Below are positions 4,260 through 38,423 of a stretch of 64,000 bases of DNA, piece by piece. Source of the DNA: an uncultured Clostridia bacterium (lineage in GTDB: Bacteria > Bacillota > Clostridia > TANB77 > CAG-465). The stretch is taken from positions 80,042 through 144,041 of the forward strand of contig CANQYI010000004.1 in NCBI GenBank assembly GCA_947628005.1. Reading direction: 5' to 3'. The notes beneath the pieces are model-generated. The model made no database searches and was not told where the DNA came from. It saw nothing but the letters and a program-made list of their open reading frames with translations. The stretch's first letter is position 1, and every line of letters begins with the position of its first letter. Both the position numbers and the translations under genes were made by a program.

Positions 4260-7200
4260 ATGGGATTTGTGCATTTGCATGTGCATACTGAATACAGTTT
4301 GCTAGATGGTGCAATAAGAATAAAAGATTTAGTAAAAAAAGTAAAAGAAAATTCTATGAATGCAGTTGCAATAACGGATCATGGAAATATGTTTGGCGCA
4401 ATAGAATTTTACAAAGAATGTGTTGCAAATTCAATAAAGCCAATTATTGGATGTGAAGTATATGTGGCTCCTAGAAGTAGATTTGAAAAAGATGGTAAGA
4501 TAGATCAAGAACCAAGCCACTTAATTTTACTTGCAATGAATAATACGGGCTACCATAATTTAGTAAAATTGTGTTCCTTAGGGTATACTGAAGGATTTTA
4601 TTATAAGCCAAGAATTGATATGGAAGCATTAAAAAAATATAATGAAGGTCTTATTTGCCTTTCAGCATGTCTTGCTTCAAAGTTATCAAAAAAAATAATA
4701 TCAAATGACATTGACGGAGCAAAAGATTTAATAAGTGAATTTATAGATATATTTGGAAAAGATAGATATTATTTAGAATTACAAGATAATAAAATAAGAG
4801 AACAGGTACTAGTAAATCAAAAGTTAATAGAATTATCTAAAGAATTTGGATTAGGACTTGTAGCAACAAATGACTGTCACTATTTAAATAAAGAAGACTA
4901 CTACTTCCATGAAATTTTACTTTGTATACAAACTCGAAAAACAATGAGTGACGAAGATAGAATGTCATTTAAAACAAATGAATTTTATTTAAAAACTCCT
5001 CAAGAGATGGAGGAAGGATTTAACAATATAAAAGAGGCCATATTAAATACTCAAAAAATAGCAGATATGTGTAATGTAACAATAGATTTTGGAAAGACTA
5101 TACTTCCAGAGTTTAAAATAGATGAAAATATATCACATTTAGAATACTTTAAAAAAATGTGTTATGAGGGAATAAAAAATAGATATGGCGATAAAGAAAA
5201 TTATGATCAAGCCAAAAAGAGATTAGATTATGAAATAGACGTTATTGATAAAATGGGCTACATAGACTATTTTTTAATAGTACAAGATTTTATAAATTAT
5301 GCTAAAAGTGTAAAAATAAAAGTTGGACCGGGAAGAGGAAGCGGTGCAGGCTCAATAGCAGCGTATGCTATTGGAATAACTGATATTGATCCCCTTAAAT
5401 TTAATTTAATATTTGAAAGATTTTTAAATCCTGAAAGAGTAAGTATGCCAGATTTTGATGTTGACTTTTGCTATGAGAGACGAGGCGAAGTAATTGATTA
5501 TGTTACAAAAAAATATGGAAAAGATCATGTGGCTCAAATAATAACTTTTGGTACTATGGCTGCAAGAGCTGCTGTAAGAGATGTTGGACGTGCACTTGAT
5601 GTGTCTTATCAAAAGACTGATAAACTTGCTAAATTAATACCTCATGTAATGAATATGACTATTGACAGAGCACTTAAAGAAAATGAAGAGTTATTATCAA
5701 TGTATCAAACTGATAATGAAGTAAAGGAAATAATTGATATAGCCAAAAAAATTGAGGGATTGCCACGCCATGCTTCTACCCATGCAGCAGGAGTTGTAAT
5801 CACAAAAGAACCAGTAGTAAATTATGTTCCATTATACTCAAATGCAGATTTAATTTCTACACAGTATACAATGACAACATTAGAAGAATTAGGCCTATTA
5901 AAAATGGATTTTTTAGGACTAAGAACTTTAACTGTAATCTCTGATACAATAAAATTAGTTGAAAAAATACATAATATAAAATTCAAATTTGATGATAACA
6001 TGGATGATAAAGAAGTATTTAAACTACTCTCAGATGGAAACACAGTTGGTATATTTCAGCTTGAAAGTAGTGGAATAAAGAGGGTAATTAAACAATTAAA
6101 ACCAGACTGCATAGAAGATATAATAGTTGTTTTATCTTTGTATAGACCTGGCCCTATGGATCAAATACCAAGGTATATAGAGAGTAAAAGAAGTGGAAAA
6201 ATAGAGTACCTTCATGAATCATTAGAACCAATTTTAAAATCTACATATGGATGTATGGTATATCAAGAACAAGTAATGCAAATATTTAGAGAACTTGCTG
6301 GCTATAGCTATGGAAGAGCAGATATAGTTAGAAGGGCAATGAGCAAAAAGAAAGTTGACGTTATGAACAAGGAAAGAGATGTGTTCATAAAAGGAGCAAA
6401 AGCAAGAGGAATAACTGAAAATATAGCCAATAAGATATTTGATGAAATGTCAGATTTTGCAAAATATGCATTTAATAAATCTCACGCAGCCTGCTATGCA
6501 GTTGTCGCATATCAAACAGCTTACCTTAAAACTTATTATCCTCACGAATTTTTTGCAGCTACTATGAATAGTTTAATGGGGGATTTTACTAAAATAGCTG
6601 AATATATAAATGAATGTAAAAAAATAGGAATAGAAGTATTAAGACCTGATATAAATGAAAGTTATACTAAATTTGCAGTAGTGAACAAAAAAATAAGATT
6701 TGCTTTGGTATCTATAAAAAATGTAGGAGAAAATGCAATAAATTATATATTAAGTGAAAGAGAACAGAATGGTAAATATACTAGCTTTATAGATTTTATA
6801 AAGAGGACAGCTTCAGAAAATGTAAATAAAAAATGTATAGAAAGTTTAATAAAAGCTGGTTGCTTCGATGAAATAGAAAAGGATTTAACAAGATATGATT
6901 TATTAGAGTCTTTTGAAAATATAGTTGATGGTGTTGTTCAAACAAGAAAATCAAATTATGAAAATCAAATCAATTTATTTGAAAATTCTAATACAAATAC
7001 TAGTCAAGATATTGTAATTAATAAAAGTGCTCATATTCCAACAAAAAAAGAACTTCTAGAAATGGAAAAAGAAATGATTGGACTTTATATATCAGGACAT
7101 CCTTTAGATGAATATATGGATTACATAGAGAAAAATTCTACTATTAGTAGCAAAGATTTAACCTCATTTACAGAAGATGAAAATGAAAGTGAAGAAGATA

Positions 7201-30236: not shown

Positions 30237-30265
30237 AGTCAACATAATTTGTTGACTTTTTTTCA
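30237..30265 (+). terminator. Rho-independent terminator
   Basis: agtcaac-loop-gttgact followed by T7. Confidence 0.6.
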
Positions 30266-30337
30266 AAAAATGGTATAATGTATATGCGTGTAACACATAA
30301 AATTTTAATTTAATAATTTAATTGGAGGAATGTTTAT

Positions 30338-30955
30338 ATGTCAAAGATGAATTTACCAAATCGGTTAACCTGTCTTAGAATAATTCTAGTACCATTTTTT
30401 ATATTTTTCATGGCTCTGCCAGAAAGTATGAATTGGACAAAGTATGTAGCACTCATAATTTATATTTTGGCTTCAATAACGGATGCCTTGGATGGTCATA
30501 TAGCAAGAAGTAGAGATATGATAACAAATTTTGGAAAAATAATGGATCCACTTGCCGATAAACTTTTGGTATCTTCAGGCTTTGTAATGTTAACAGCTCT
30601 CGGAGTAATACCTGGGTTTATAACTGCTATAATATTATTTAGAGATCTTACAGTTTCTTCACTTAGAATGTTTGCTGTAAATAAAAAACATGATGTTGCA
30701 GCTTCGTGGTCAGGAAAAGTAAAAACAGTATTTCAACTTATAGGAATATGTATTGCTATATTTTTAACAGCATATTCTGAAGAAAACTCAGCTATGTTTG
30801 GATTTTTAAATGTGCCCATAAGTAAAATATTTGAAATATATTCAATTTTAAATTTTATTATGACTATTTGCATTTTAATAGCACTAATTACTACAATATG
30901 GTCATTAATTGATTATTTTAAAAGGTTTAAAGCAGATATAAATGTACAAGAATAA
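30338..30955 (+). CDS. pgsA: CDP-diacylglycerol--glycerol-3-phosphate 3-phosphatidyltransferase, copy 1
   Basis: NLPNRLTCLRIILVPFF...DALDGHIAR...GKIMDPLADKLLV CDP-alcohol phosphatidyltransferase motif. Confidence 0.85.
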   Translation: MSKMNLPNRLTCLRIILVPFFIFFMALPESMNWTKYVALIIYILASITDALDGHIARSRDMITNFGKIMDPLADKLLVSSGFVMLTALGVIPGFITAIILFRDLTVSSLRMFAVNKKHDVAASWSGKVKTVFQLIGICIAIFLTAYSEENSAMFGFLNVPISKIFEIYSILNFIMTICILIALITTIWSLIDYFKRFKADINVQE

Positions 30956-30964
30956 TATAAAAAT

Positions 30965-30998
30965 AGAAGGCCAATTTTTGACCTTCTATTTATTTTTT
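30965..30998 (+). terminator. Rho-independent terminator after pgsA copy 1
   Basis: agaagg-loop-ccttct followed by a T-run. Confidence 0.5.
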
Positions 30999-31008
30999 AA
31001 TATTTTAC

Positions 31009-31037
31009 TTGACATAAAACAAAAAAAGTGTTATAAT
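31009..31037 (+). promoter_or_regulatory. Perfect consensus sigma-A promoter (TTGACA-17-TGnTATAAT) driving the GC-rich ORF
   Basis: ttgaca at 31009-31014, 17-nt spacer, tataat at 31032-31037 with an upstream TG. Confidence 0.6.
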
Positions 31038-31090
31038 AATTGCGTAGGAAAAAACGATATCCTTGAAAATTTTAAAGGAGGAAAAAAAAT

Positions 31091-31537
31091 ATGGATTATA
31101 GGATAATCACAAATCAAATCTTGGTGGGTAAGGCCACCAAGGAGGAACTTCTAAAAAGATACGGTTGCTCTGAAAGCACACTGTATCGTTGCCTTGAACA
31201 GGGCGGCGATGATAAGAAGAAATTGCTTGCCCAAATGCGGGCAAACAAGAAGGCCCCAAAAATCTACCTTGACGTCTCGTACGTAAGGGCCTTTGGTGAA
31301 ATGTCCGCGTTGATGTATTTCTTAGGACGTGGCAGAATCTATGCTACGGGCCTGAGAGATGGAGGCATCAATGTTAATGAGATAGACCTCAAGGGTCTGT
31401 ATCAGGACAAGGACGGTTTCACGGTTGTATGTGGGGCAGATAATAAAGCCTTCATGTATGAAGAAGCCGGTTTTAGGACTGTGACGTACAAGAAGAAAAA
31501 ATACAATTTCCGTAGGAAAAAGGAGGAAGTAAGCTAA
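31091..31537 (+). CDS. 148-aa protein of foreign composition with an N-terminal resolvase-type HTH (..GCSESTLYRCL..) and a C-terminal domain of unknown function
   Basis: AGGAGG RBS 8 nt upstream. GC content is about 45-50% against a ~25% background. Codon usage is alien to the host (ctg, ggc, gcc, gcg, acg, cgt); the first ~10 codons are AT-rich, then the composition switches. Confidence 0.6.
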   Translation: MDYRIITNQILVGKATKEELLKRYGCSESTLYRCLEQGGDDKKKLLAQMRANKKAPKIYLDVSYVRAFGEMSALMYFLGRGRIYATGLRDGGINVNEIDLKGLYQDKDGFTVVCGADNKAFMYEEAGFRTVTYKKKKYNFRRKKEEVS

Positions 31538-31551
31538 AAAGCTAAATTTTA

Positions 31552-31588
31552 AGACGGCGCTTAATTTAAGCGCCGTTTATTTTTTTGT
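31552..31588 (+). terminator. GC-rich Rho-independent terminator after the foreign ORF
   Basis: acggcgc-ttaatttaa-gcgccgt followed by T-rich sequence. The GC-only stem is unlike the AT-rich host terminators. Confidence 0.7.
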
Positions 31589-31635
31589 TTATTTGTGTAA
31601 ATTTTATGAAAAGATTTAAAAATAAAATAAAGTAA

Positions 31636-31665
31636 TTGACTTTTATATTATATCTTTGCTATAAT
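31636..31665 (+). promoter_or_regulatory. Sigma-A-type promoter for pgsA copy 2
   Basis: ttgact at 31636-31641, 18-nt spacer, tgctataat at 31657-31665. Confidence 0.5.
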
Positions 31666-31689: not shown

Positions 31690-32307
31690 ATGTTAAAGAA
31701 AATGAATTTACCTAACAAATTAACTTGTTTAAGAATAATATTAGTTCCAATTTTTGTTATATTAATGTGTTTACCAGAAGAAATTAATGTTACTAAATAT
31801 ATAGCTTTAGGAATATTTGTACTTGCTGCAGTGACAGATTTCTTAGATGGTACCATTTCAAGAAAAAAAGGAATAGTTACAAATTTTGGAAAAATAATGG
31901 ATCCACTTGCTGATAAACTTTTAGTTTCTGCAGGATTTATAATGCTTACAGGATTACAAATTATTCCAGCATGGATTACTTTCATAATAATTTTTAGAGA
32001 TTTTTTTGTTAATGCACTTAGAATGTTTGCAGTAGGAACTGATGAAGATTTAGCTGCTAGCCTTAGTGGAAAAATAAAGACTATATTTCAACTTGTAGGA
32101 TTAGTTTTAGCTTTAGTAGGATTTGCATTTGGATTTGAATATAATAGCTATGTAGACTTTATTAATTCATATTCTGTAATGAAATTTTTTGAACTTTTTG
32201 TAAATGTATTTATGAGTGTATCTATTTCGGCAGCAACTGTATGTTCTGTATGGTCACTTGTTGATTACTTTTTTAAATATAAAAAACACATAGATGTTGA
32301 AAAATAG
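31690..32307 (+). CDS. pgsA: CDP-diacylglycerol--glycerol-3-phosphate 3-phosphatidyltransferase, copy 2 (diverged paralog)
   Basis: Same motif set (NLPNKLTCLRIILVPIF...DFLDGTISR...GKIMDPLADKLLVS); roughly half identical to copy 1. Confidence 0.85.
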   Translation: MLKKMNLPNKLTCLRIILVPIFVILMCLPEEINVTKYIALGIFVLAAVTDFLDGTISRKKGIVTNFGKIMDPLADKLLVSAGFIMLTGLQIIPAWITFIIIFRDFFVNALRMFAVGTDEDLAASLSGKIKTIFQLVGLVLALVGFAFGFEYNSYVDFINSYSVMKFFELFVNVFMSVSISAATVCSVWSLVDYFFKYKKHIDVEK

Positions 32308-32408: not shown

Positions 32409-32951
32409 ATGAATAAAGATGGTAGAATTTCTTTGGTATTAATTTTATTTTTACTAATATCAGTTATTTTAATTATTGTAATTGTAAATATTGATTTAGA
32501 TGGAAAGACTCCATATGAGAATACATCTCTTGCCTCATTGCTTGAAAGTAAGGAAGGAATAGAGAATCAAATATCTATCTATAAATCTAATATTTTATCT
32601 ACTAATACAGTTGAAAGTGCGACATATAATGTAATTATAGATAGTAAAAATTATAGTATAATTGATGATAATTATATAGAAGAGCCATTAGATATGGATT
32701 TTAATGGTTCTAGAATTATTTTATATAAAATAGACCAAAATAAATATAAAAAAAATGTTTCTACTAGTGTAATGATGCAAGAAGATCTTATAGACAACTT
32801 ATTTATAGATGACAATGAAAGTGTGTACTTTGTATTTGATAATTATGATAGTATTCCTAAATGGGTAAAAAAAATATTAGAAAATGGAAAAGATTATGAA
32901 AAACAAACTCTTGCAAATTTTATAGTAATAAAAGATAATGGAGAATTATAA
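32409..32951 (+). CDS. Hypothetical membrane-anchored protein
   Basis: GAGGGG RBS then the ATG at 32409; one N-terminal TM; no family recognised. Confidence 0.45.
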   Translation: MNKDGRISLVLILFLLISVILIIVIVNIDLDGKTPYENTSLASLLESKEGIENQISIYKSNILSTNTVESATYNVIIDSKNYSIIDDNYIEEPLDMDFNGSRIILYKIDQNKYKKNVSTSVMMQEDLIDNLFIDDNESVYFVFDNYDSIPKWVKKILENGKDYEKQTLANFIVIKDNGEL

Positions 32952-34999: not shown

Positions 35000-37900
35000 A
35001 TGAATCCGCTAATTAATATAAAGAGTAATATATTTGAAAATATTCTACAAGATATACAAGATAAAGATATTAGTATTTCATATTTAACAGATAGTTCTAA
35101 AGCCCATATTATATATGGGCTTACTGTGCGTGGTAAAAAATCTTCACTTGTGTGTTGTGCTAACACAGTAGATGCACATAAAATGGTAACTAATTTAAAA
35201 TTTTATTCTGATATAAGTGTTGAATATTTTCCAGCAAAAGAATTGATATACTACGATATAGAAGCTGAAAGTAAAGAAAATTTAATTGATAGAATGAGTA
35301 TAATAAAAAACATATTGCTAGATAAAAATAAAAAAATTATTGTTACTACAATAGATGCTTTAATGCAAAATATGCCTGACTTTGATAATAGATTAAATAA
35401 TTTAGAGACTTATATAGATATTAATACTAAAGTTAATTTGGATGACTTTGTAAATACACTTATTAATATGGGCTACGAAAGATGTGAAAATATAGAAGGT
35501 AAATCTCAATTTGCTGTAAGAGGTGGAATAATTGATGTATTTCCAATTGAGAGTAAATTACCAGTAAGAATTGAATTTTTTGGAGATGAAATTGATAATA
35601 TAAGGACTTTTGATTTAATTACTCAAAGAAGTATAGATACATTGCATCATGTAAATATAACTTTTGTCAAAGAAAATAATATAGATAAATCAACAAAAAA
35701 TGATGCTATAAAAAAAATTAATAAATTAATTGAATCTGAGGAATGTGATACAAAATTAAAAGACTATTTAAAAGAAGATTTAGATAAGATAGAAAATGAT
35801 GATACATACGGTATTATAGATAAGTACTTTGAAATATTAGTCAAAAATAAGAAAAAATTATTAGATTACTTAAAAGATTATAATATATTTATTAATGAGC
35901 CACAGAAATGTTTAGAAAAATCATATAACTTAATTAATGAAAATCAAGAAACTTTAAATGTATTAGAGGAAAAAAATTACATATATAGACCATTTGTAGC
36001 AAAGTATTTAAATTATGATGATACTTTCGATGGCGTTAAAAATCGTATATACTTAGAAAATCTTAAAATTTCAAATTCTAATAAATCATATTCAAAAGAA
36101 TATGTCTTAGATTTTAAGGAACAAAATTTTTATAAAAACTCATTTGAGACGTTGTTATCAGATGTAAAAAAACATAAAGATTATTTAAAAATACTTGTTT
36201 TTCCTACAAAAGTTAGAGAAGAACAAGTAAGCAATTTTCTTATAGATAATAAAGTTAATGTATTACAGGTAAATGATATATTTGATGTTGATATAACTAG
36301 AAAAGATACTGTATATATAATGCAGTCTGTGCTATCAAATGGTTATGTATCTGATAATTTAAAATTGTACATTTTGACTGAATCTGTTACGGGAACAAAT
36401 TCTAAATTTAAAAAATTAAGAAAATCTAAACCTTTAGGTAGTGTTATTAATAGCTATGATGATTTGCAAATAGGGGATTATATAGTACATGAAAATCACG
36501 GTATAGGTATATATAGAGGAATTAGCACAATTAGTGTTCAAAATGTGATAAAAGATTATATAAAATTAGAATATCAAAATGGTGGAATTTTATATGTACC
36601 GATAAATCAATTAGATAGTGTTACAAAATATATAAGTGATGAAGATAAAGTAGTAAAACTTAATTCATTAAATGGAAAAGACTGGGAAAAAACGAAGAAA
36701 AATGTACAAGAACACGTATATGAGATTGCTAAAGAATTGATAAGTTTATATGCTAAAAGAGAAAAATCTAAAGGCTATGCATTTGAAAAAGATAGTCAGT
36801 GGCAAAAAGAATTTGAAGATTCATTTGAATATGAACTTACTCCCGATCAAAAACAGGCAGTTATGGATGTAAAAGCTGATATGGAAAGTGATAAAATAAT
36901 GGATAGATTGCTATGTGGCGATGTTGGATATGGAAAGACAGAAGTAGCACTTAGAGCTGCATTTAAAGCTGTAATGAGCGGAAAACAAGTAGCTTACCTT
37001 GTTCCAACTACTGTATTATCTATGCAACAATATCAAACTTTTAAATCCAGAATGGATCCATTTGGAGTCAAGGTAGAAATGCTTAGTAGATTTAAATCAA
37101 AGGCTGAACAGACTGAAATATTAAAGGGACTTATAGATGGTAAAATTGATGTTGTAATTGGAACACATAGACTTTTATCTAAGGATGTTTATTTTAAAGA
37201 TTTAGGATTTTTAATTATAGATGAAGAGCATAGATTTGGTGTAAAAGCTAAAGAAGCAATAAAAACATTAAAAGAAAATATAGATGTTTTATCTATGACT
37301 GCAACACCGATACCTAGAACATTGCACATGTCACTTGTAGGTATTAGATCTATGAGTACACTTACAGAGCCACCGCTAGAAAGATTACCAGTACATACAT
37401 ATGTTTTAGAATATGATGATGTAATTATAAAAGAAGCAATTGAAAAAGAATTGTTAAGAGATGGCCAAGTATTTTATATAAGTAATAGAGTAGAAGATAT
37501 AGAGGAAGTTACAAATAAGGTTAAAAATCTTGTACCAAATGCAAGAGTCGGATTTGCTCATGGTCAAATGTCACCAGATGAGATAGAAGATGTAATGATA
37601 AAATTTATTAATCACGATTTAGACATAATAGTTTGTACAACCATATTGGAAACAGGTATTGATATCAGAAATGCTAATACTATAATAATAGAAAATGCTG
37701 ATAAATTAGGACTTGCTCAATTATATCAAATAAGAGGAAGAGTTGGAAGGTCAAATAGACTTGCTTACGCTTATATTACTTACGAAAAAAATAAACAAAT
37801 CTCTGAAATATCTGAAAAGAGGCTTAAAGCAATTAGAGATTTTACTGAATTTGGAAGTGGATTTAAAATAGCTCTAAGAGATTTAGAAATAAGAGGAGCA

Positions 37901-38423
37901 GGAAGTTTGCTTGGAAGTAAACAACATCGGTCATATGGTTAAAGTTGGTTATGAAATGTACATGAATTTACTTGAAAGAGCAGTTGAAAAAGAAAAGAAT
38001 GCAGATAAAGAAAATAATATTGTTAAACAAAATATTAATAAAGAGGTAAAGATAGATGTAAATGTTTCAGCATATATTAGTGATGAATATATAAAAGATC
38101 CAATACAAAAGATTTTAATGTATCAGAAAATATCTAATATTTCTAATAAAGAAGAAAGTTTAGATGTAACAGATGAATTGTTAGATAGATATGGAAATAT
38201 ACCAATTGAAACACAAAATTTAATAAAAATAGTAGAAATAAGAAATATTGCAAGAGAGATTGGTGTTAATAAAATATGTGTAAATGGTGAAAATTTGTTT
38301 ATTGAAACTAATGATAGGAAATTAAGATTGACAAACAAAAAAACAAATGATATACTTGTTTACATACAGTTACAGCTAAATGACTTAAAAGAAAAATTAA
38401 ATGAAAAGGAGAGTTATACATGA
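35000..38423 (+). pseudogene. mfd: Transcription-repair coupling factor Mfd, split by a +1 frameshift (single extra C) near nt 37928
   Basis: ORFs 35000..37942 and 37911..38423 together give a full-length Mfd (UvrB-homology, RID, DEAD/helicase motifs GDVGYGKTEVALRA, DEEHRFGV, TRCF C-terminus). The join reads LLGSKQH|GHMVKVGYEMY only if the C in catCggtcat is removed. Confidence 0.8.

Follow-up and report, generated by a model that had tools for sequence, protein, structure and literature searches.

We describe here a gene, designated X, located between two pgsA paralogues in a 64-kb stretch of DNA from an uncultured Clostridia bacterium (contig CANQYI010000004.1; the complete stretch is referred to below as the window), which encodes a 148-aa protein and departs sharply in base composition from its surroundings. 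Comparison of X in the window's species (species 1) and in related genomes leads us to regard it, as the probable reading though with some reservation, as a regulator gene in which old alleles are kept and undergo exchange through recombination. In each of three species, alignment reveals what are, at the level of sequence, a few discrete, deeply diverged alleles of X between which short stretches are exchanged through recombination and gene conversion. The gene lies on the chromosome and is confined to a single clade of gut Clostridia that have not been cultured, where pgsA1-X-pgsA2 forms a fixed module. The gene unit comprises the following features, all coordinates being those of the window.

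31091–31537, + strand: the X open reading frame (ORF), 148 aa (447 nt), identified from the ratio of nonsynonymous (dN) to synonymous (dS) divergence, third-position bias, in-frame indels, an AlphaFold model and the Pfam domain HTH_7.
31009–31037, + strand: sigma-70-type promoter of X, consisting of TTGACA (31009–31014), a 17-nt spacer and TGnTATAAT (TGT-TATAAT, ending at 31037), with 12 of 12 consensus matches plus the TG.
31076–31081, + strand: ribosome-binding site (RBS) AGGAGG of X, 9 nt 5′ of the ATG at 31091, read directly from the sequence.
31552–31588, + strand: intrinsic terminator of X, a ACGGCGCTTAA / TTAAGCGCCGT hairpin followed by a T-run, from an inverted repeat and a terminator-like call.
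31031–31541, + strand: hypervariable tract covering the 5′ untranslated region (5′UTR) and the whole coding region of X, bounded by the conserved promoter and terminator.

The extent of allelic variation in X is as follows, the listed contigs being those assigned to each species.

Species 1 (window, L001–L006): X differs by 20–28% at the nucleotide level (dS 0.84–1.29, dN 0.14–0.18), the flanks by 0.8% over 12 kb (dS 0–0.07).
Species 2 (L087, L099–L101): X differs by 14.8%, the pgsA1 flank by 0.3%.
Species 3 (L088, L091–L098, L102–L105): X differs by 24.6%, the flanks by ∼2%, with a short contig also compared.

Divergence in X is 12–35 times that of the flanks, and in species 1 corresponds to 92–126 differences in the 447-nt ORF versus ∼0.8% in the 12-kb flanks. 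The species-1 variable tract starts just past the −10 box and stops just before the terminator. The promoter is constant across the species-1 alleles, save for one base immediately 5′ of the −10 hexamer, and is kept across species; the terminator hairpin (31552–31578, 12 pairs, 6 of them G-C) is unchanged in all alleles, and its 17-nt core is identical in species 2. The ends of the variable tract differ by species, the last 110 nt of X being conserved in species 2 and the first 97 nt in species 3. Divergence in X is bimodal rather than clock-like: between contigs that carry the same allele there are 0–1 changes in X, as against as many as 103 nt per 12.4 kb (0.15–0.8%) in the flanks. Mosaicism is evident as a 75-nt identical run within an allele pair that is 28% diverged, as five differences between L006 and the window that all (5/5) match the states of other alleles, and in species 3 as protein variants that include recombinants of one another. 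Thus X displays the properties of an allelic hypervariable locus, namely discrete diverged classes, near-identical flanks and mosaic recombination.

Searches of 5.8 billion protein clusters and of 1.84 billion representatives yielded a family of only eight clusters at 90% identity; the search for homologues of X was extended to phage and plasmid records, IMG/VR, JGI contigs and GTDB species representatives. Wherever the genomic context of a member is available, in the three species and in a fourth lineage (L089/L090), X lies between pgsA1 and pgsA2, and no homologue outside this slot was detected in the protein clusters, phage/plasmid records, IMG/VR, JGI contigs or GTDB representatives. The block GerAC...SpoVG-UvrC-pgsA1-X-pgsA2-hyp-LigA-Mfd is whole in species 1, 2 and 3; in the fourth lineage uvrC-pgsA1-X-pgsA2 is kept, with TelA, PP2C and kinase genes downstream of it. 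No mobility genes are present in the syntenic block around X, which is carried by independent metagenome assemblies from several studies. More distant Clostridia metagenome-assembled genomes, including the outgroups L008 and L009, possess one pgsA with a pgsA2-like N-terminus, adjoining ligA, and lack X. Among the matches listed in a scan of GTDB with pgsA1, none came closer than 50% identity. The name of one species-3 contig points to a human-gut Hadza/Nepal sample.

Between species, X proteins are only 30–38% identical with synonymous sites saturated, while pgsA orthologues are 73–81% identical. GC content at third codon positions (GC3) of X is 0.52–0.57, 0.38–0.39, 0.40–0.47 and 0.48 in the individual lineages as compared to 0.11–0.30 in flanking genes, and in every lineage X has a GC3 3–4 times that of its host genome. 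Occupation of the same slot in four lineages, combined with low protein identity and saturated synonymous sites, indicates that X is old in this position, and since GC3 is raised in all of them the GC-richness has been maintained and is not a relic of recent transfer. The first-pass annotation had said that X looks like a recently acquired or engineered gene and had suggested comparison with relatives for contiguous pgsA1 and pgsA2. The former is contradicted by the very pattern which that annotation had named as refuting it, the same ORF, in the same slot and with raised GC3, in three species and a fourth lineage, and the latter arrangement was not encountered, as all related genomes with context carry X there.

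The anomaly in composition is pronounced. The X ORF has a GC content of 0.443 and a GC3 of 0.523, compared with a GC3 of 0.08–0.26 in all other window ORFs of at least 100 aa. Around X, 400-nt segments have a GC content of 0.41–0.43 against surroundings of ∼0.25, and 300-nt segments peak at 0.47, which is the maximum for the entire 64 kb (mean 0.266, sd 0.045). A codon adaptation index (CAI)-like measure is 0.279 for X and 0.722 ± 0.043 for 54 window genes (z about −10), and codons rare for window genes make up 27% of X but 4.7% elsewhere. The opening 30 nt are AT-rich (GC 0.27). In these respects the earlier description of X was accurate: it is a self-contained promoter-RBS-ORF-terminator unit, a GC and codon-usage outlier whose first ∼10 codons are AT-rich, located between two genes that both encode PF01066 domains. 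The 9-bp direct repeat AAATTTTAA reported to flank the ORF does occur at 31067 and 31544, but the meaning attached to it does not hold, as 19 copies are present in the window versus 17.2 expected and the repeat at X is not conserved in other species. Its interpretation as a target-site duplication or cassette boundary was rejected on the basis of this chance-level frequency. Similarly, no operator common to the pgsA1, X and pgsA2 promoters emerged, AAATTTTAA-like motifs not being conserved across species.

X has the substitution pattern of a protein-coding gene. The three species-1 alleles exhibit a dN/dS of 0.15–0.19, with 54–60 of the 92–110 substitutions at third positions, and all indels between them are multiples of 3 (3-nt and 9-nt), so that the frame is kept; the ORF is open in all nine family members. 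Purifying selection, third-position bias and in-frame indels establish X as a protein gene, and on the evidence of the alignments it is translated and under purifying selection. An AlphaFold model built from nine sequences (predicted local distance difference test 78.9, predicted template modelling score 0.71) places a four-helix N-terminal domain at residues ∼3–52, with a helix-turn-helix (HTH) at 17–36, followed at residues ∼57–133 by a small alpha/beta domain of four strands (57–60, 82–85, 110–114 and 130–133) and a lysine-rich, basic tail that is disordered in the model. The N-terminal resolvase-type HTH described in the first-pass annotation is supported by the model and by the homologues, with HTH_7 (PF02796) matching six of nine family members at the TKEELLKRYGCSESTLYRCL segment (best E = 1e-5); the window protein itself remains below the Pfam cutoff (E = 0.006, 17.1 bits, against a gathering cutoff of 23.8). 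Residues invariant in the nine-member alignment are T16, N52, Y59, D61, S63, G69, G79, G81, T86, L103, C114, K119, A120 and G127.

The C-terminal part had been said to resemble nothing recognisable, which agrees with our searches, as no family was found for this domain in Pfam, NCBIfam, PHROG, PADLOC or PDB sequences. Foldseek matches for the model were weak; the best are Rex-type HTH plus alpha/beta repressors (3keo_A, E = 8.7e-4, prob 0.97) at a template modelling (TM) score of ∼0.3, and a BFVD fold search yielded no matches. The absence of GxGxxG after strand 1 implies that X is not Rex-like in ligand binding. No resolvase or transposase catalytic domain was matched in Pfam or NCBIfam in any family member, and the serine recombinase YxRVS motif is not present in X, YLDVS being only superficially alike with D replacing R. 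A literature search for a described equivalent of X returned nothing relevant. X appears to represent a new family of small DNA-binding proteins, probably transcription regulators, and the modelled alpha/beta domain is possibly ligand-sensing.

In species 1, the degree of structure in the sense coding RNA of X goes far beyond what its protein sequence and codon usage would demand. Folding of the X transcript compared with shuffles gives z = −7.1. For the coding region, dinucleotide shuffling yields z-scores of −6.2 for the window allele and −5.1 and −5.3 for the two other species-1 alleles, and synonymous-codon shuffling, in which protein and codon usage are kept, yields −6.1 for the window allele and −5.3 and −4.8 for the others, compared with −0.9 ± 1.2 (minimum −3.0) in 16 window control genes. 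In the three-allele consensus structure 93% of cells pair, and eight compensatory (double-sided) pairs are observed versus 3.6 ± 1.5 in shuffles and 0–4 in slid controls. The sense strand is 37–45 kcal/mol more stable than the antisense strand, for which z-scores are weaker, an advantage indicating that the signal points to sense RNA and not DNA. Despite a dS of ∼1, the coding region contains two hairpins whose nucleotides do not vary. No Rfam match overlaps X at E ≤ 1, and throughout the window no Rfam family attains its gathering score; neither a tRNA nor a tmRNA was found.

One structure within codons 10–19 of X deserves separate mention. A hairpin (CTTGGTGG-GTAAGG-CCACCAAG) at window positions 31120–31146 (+ strand) is followed by a 7-nt Shine-Dalgarno-like AAGGAGG, after which there is no start codon. 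The 28-nt core (31123–31150) is invariant in all species-1 alleles despite a dS of ∼1. The hairpin and AAGGAGG may constitute a pausing or RNA-level element.

How old alleles persist and move at X can be envisaged as follows. Balancing or frequency-dependent selection would keep the alleles in place, or they would arrive again and again from close sister lineages, with the conserved promoter and terminator regions serving as homology arms for allele exchange. That the divergence peak is so narrow speaks for balancing selection rather than for introgression from sister lineages outside the sample. Selection on the transcript would preserve an mRNA that is GC-rich, structured and written in rare codons, acting on its stability and/or on the throttling of translation in a regulator with strong transcription, and GC-biased gene conversion (gBGC) at a recombination hot spot may contribute to the GC-richness. 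The targets of X probably include the neighbouring pgsA genes, a guess drawn from linkage in the conserved trio.

Three candidate causes of the GC-richness of X were considered. Transcript selection for structure or stability is supported in species 1 by the folding results, and rare-codon throttling, in a gene whose promoter matches the consensus, is consistent with the codon-usage data. gBGC at a recombination hot spot may be the third, under which we note the raised GC3 of pgsA1 next to X in species 3 and L089. Recombining bacterial genes show higher GC3 via non-optimal GC-ending codons (Lassalle et al. 2015, PMC4450053).

Several observations weigh against the explanation proposed here. 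Balancing selection and introgression are inseparable with 2–3 alleles per species, and an intracellular HTH protein is no obvious target of frequency-dependent selection. Codon-shuffle z-scores in other lineages are −3.4, −2.3, −1.3, −1.1 and +0.1; as RNA structure is weaker or absent in these lineages, structure cannot alone explain the family-wide GC3. Reported effects of gBGC in bacteria are modest, much below a shift from 0.13 to 0.5, and the 5′UTR and first 10 codons of X are AT-rich though they lie inside the variable tract. Recent changes in X that could be polarised comprise four from A or T to G or C and seven in the opposite direction, with no excess of the former, although the sites are few and power is low. 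A further proposal unites the separate features in a new kind of polymorphic regulator locus, the GC-rich, heavily folded X mRNA itself being functional or regulatory, the protein a new HTH-alpha/beta sensor tied to duplicated phosphatidylglycerophosphate synthases and the alleles long kept by frequency-dependent selection; we consider this combination possible but doubtful. Were it true, strain recognition could be one source of the frequency-dependent selection, and antagonism with phages or other mobile elements another, and the lasting GC3 anomaly would be the footprint of RNA-level selection or intense biased gene conversion.

Other explanations of X account for part of the data. That a foreign regulator was newly inserted between the two pgsA genes, by recent horizontal acquisition or as an engineered cassette, would fit the extreme GC3 and codon usage, the textbook promoter, RBS and terminator and the absence of X from distant outgroups. 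This is almost certainly incorrect, as amelioration should have erased a foreign signature in a gene whose proteins are 30–38% identical across four lineages sharing the slot, yet GC3 is high in all; in addition, no homologue exists beyond this slot in the databases searched, the 9-bp repeat is at chance level, the syntenic block lacks mobility genes and X recurs in metagenome assemblies made independently in several studies. Localised hypermutation, that is in situ diversification by a retroelement resembling a diversity-generating retroelement (DGR) or by a transcription-coupled mutator, would with a GC-increasing bias explain divergence and GC content together, and is suggested by a species-1 variable tract that coincides with the transcribed region from the −10 box to the terminator hairpin, by the very strong promoter and by the 12- to 35-fold excess of divergence over the flanks. 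However, contigs sharing an allele are 0–1 nt apart in X despite flank differences of 0.15–0.8%, and a dN/dS of 0.17 with third-position bias requires many small selected steps rather than bursts. The substitution spectrum is ordinary (transition/transversion ratio ∼1, all classes occurring) with no adenine specificity, the ends of the tract vary between species, no second or template-repeat copy of X exists within the 64-kb window, and no reverse-transcriptase domain is among the Pfam domains listed for genes of the 12-kb syntenic blocks. Bimodal divergence, low dN/dS, the ordinary spectrum and the lack of a second copy in the window exclude an ongoing hypermutation or DGR-like mechanism, and to hypermutation as the source of the X alleles we attach very little probability.

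The extensive folding of the transcript raises the alternative that X is mainly a structured RNA, either a non-coding GC-rich island or a dual-function RNA with a secondary ORF. Structured RNAs are known to stand out as GC-rich islands where the genome is AT-rich, and z-scores of −5 to −7 in three species-1 alleles under both null models, some covariation, preference for the sense strand and two hairpins in the coding region that stay nucleotide-invariant at a dS of ∼1 are all in agreement. Conversely, the ORF is open in all nine members with in-frame indels and a dN/dS of 0.17, the RNAs of remote homologues identified by protein profile are not significantly structured, and no Rfam match is obtained even at E = 1. 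A purely non-coding RNA was excluded because the ORF is under purifying selection, and this coding evidence leaves at most a dual function, in some lineages only; a mainly RNA identity for X is rather unlikely. X could also be conceived as a fused toxin-antitoxin-like or defence-type selfish gene, combining the HTH with a PIN-like nuclease and diversified in an arms race with phages or mobile elements, which we consider quite improbable. D61 is the sole invariant acidic residue, indicating that X is no canonical PIN nuclease, as the catalytic set of three to four conserved acidic residues is absent, and HAD and Rossmann domains score equally well. The PADLOC defence-system models give X only a weak, HTH-only match, there are no phage or plasmid homologues, and the strictly single-copy, syntenic arrangement of X in the different species does not resemble that of mobile toxin-antitoxin or defence islands.

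The genes and signals adjoining X are the following.

30338–30955, + strand: pgsA1, CDP-alcohol phosphatidyltransferase paralogue, 205 aa (Pfam PF01066, E = 5.9e-41).
30961–30991, + strand: terminator hairpin of pgsA1, an inverted repeat and terminator-like site.
31636–31665, + strand: promoter of pgsA2, TTGACT, 18 nt and TATAAT with TG, 11 of 12 consensus matches and kept across species.
31690–32307, + strand: pgsA2, 205 aa (Pfam PF01066, E = 7.6e-40).

The two pgsA products are 53% identical to each other; PgsA1 is 75–81% identical to its orthologues in other species, and pgsA2 is similar to the single pgsA of the outgroup genomes. Near-consensus extended −10 promoters (11–12 of 12 matches with TG) occur at 30252–30279, 31009–31037 and 31636–31665, one each for pgsA1, X and pgsA2. 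The presence of a promoter for each gene and of a terminator hairpin after both pgsA1 and X indicates that the trio comprises three separate transcription units and not an operon. The pgsA1 terminator forms the upstream edge of divergence of the L005 allele, in which both stem arms are changed. A motif, TTTGTGTAAATTTTATGAAAA, is observed ∼25–45 nt 5′ of the pgsA2 −35 box (window 31590–31612, L099 ∼6520–6545, L091 ∼6510–6535 and L089 ∼2205–2230); it is kept in all three species, and in part in L089, although the surrounding intergenic DNA has diverged, and is a candidate regulatory site for pgsA2. The X leaders of species 2 and the L089 lineage are ∼2 times the length of those in species 1 and 3, and share an element, GGGGGATAGTTTTT...CATTCGT, in the 5′UTR (L099 ∼5935–5965, L089 ∼1555–1590) that is absent from species 1 and 3.

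GC3 of pgsA1 is raised (0.25–0.38) over its full length in species 3 (L091/L102 5250–5870) and L089 (830–1438), with pgsA2 at background (0.10–0.17) in both. In the 3′ 500 nt of species-3 pgsA1, divergence between allele classes is also raised, ∼5% versus 2%. Two genes 3′ of X, a hypothetical membrane-anchored protein (window 32409–32951, + strand; L001/L005 7307–7861) belongs to no Pfam family and is fast-evolving, with 33% identity between species and, within species 1, a dN of 0.007–0.012 and dS of 0.010 (dN/dS ∼1). Further downstream, mfd (TRCF; window 35000–38423, + strand) is split by a frameshift near 37925–37942 into a 980-aa ORF ending ...KQHRSYG* and a 170-aa ORF (37911–38423) holding the TRCF domain (PF03461, E = 4e-25). 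The +1 frame encodes the conserved GHMVKVGYEMY motif. A product of equal length, 980 aa, is reported for the independent contig behind L005, and an intact 1142-aa product is present in species 3.

The X locus combines features of two kinds already known, the allelic hypervariable locus and the one-component-type regulator. Staphylococcal agr (agrB-D-C) and the Bacillus subtilis comQXP pherotype loci are hypervariable specificity loci with conserved flanks. X is similar to these in having few deeply diverged allele classes per species, sharp borders to near-identical flanks, mosaics and deviant composition. The agr and comQXP loci, however, encode a signal peptide, processing enzyme and receptor in which variation sets specificity groups, whereas X is a single intracellular HTH protein, GC-richer than its genome, with no adjacent peptide or receptor gene. 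The modelled architecture, an N-terminal DNA-binding helical domain and then a parallel alpha/beta domain, would resemble that of the Rex family, from which X differs in its low TM score (∼0.3), identity of 10–18%, ∼60 fewer residues, four strands and lack of the glycine motif; Pfam and PDB sequence searches disclosed no sequence-level relation to Rex. The HTH of X resembles resolvase/invertase and transposase HTH domains (Pfam HTH_7, HTH_23, HTH_28; DUF1492), DUF1492 being presumably sigma region 4-like. In X, however, the HTH lies at the N-terminus and not at the C-terminus, and neither a serine-recombinase nor a transposase catalytic domain is detected.

Comparison can also be made at the level of composition. 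X resembles recombining genes whose raised GC3 has been attributed to gBGC (PMC4450053) in intragenic recombination and in a GC3 excess residing in non-optimal GC-ending codons; unlike such genes, the AT-rich 5′UTR and first codons in the same tract lack a GC excess. The GC3 of X, 0.52 versus 0.13, exceeds by far the genome-wide averages that are reported for such effects. In high-GC Streptomyces, TTA-containing regulatory genes depend on the bldA tRNA. By analogy X, a regulatory gene written in codons very rare for its genome, could have its translation throttled or made conditional. It would be the mirror image of the bldA case, with GC-ending codons in an AT-rich genome and many codon families involved rather than one codon.

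Compositional outliers are routinely read as recent transfers, and X provides an old, vertically placed counterexample in which GC-richness has been maintained. It is thereby a possible natural test case for the deviation of a single gene in base composition, in which RNA-structure selection, rare-codon gating and biased gene conversion could be compared. X also constitutes an unannotated protein family and a strain-resolving marker, with deep allele classes, in human-gut Clostridia of which none is represented in culture. Since X is always linked to the two pgsA paralogues, it may point to a so far unexplored step at which these bacteria control the synthesis of membrane phospholipids.

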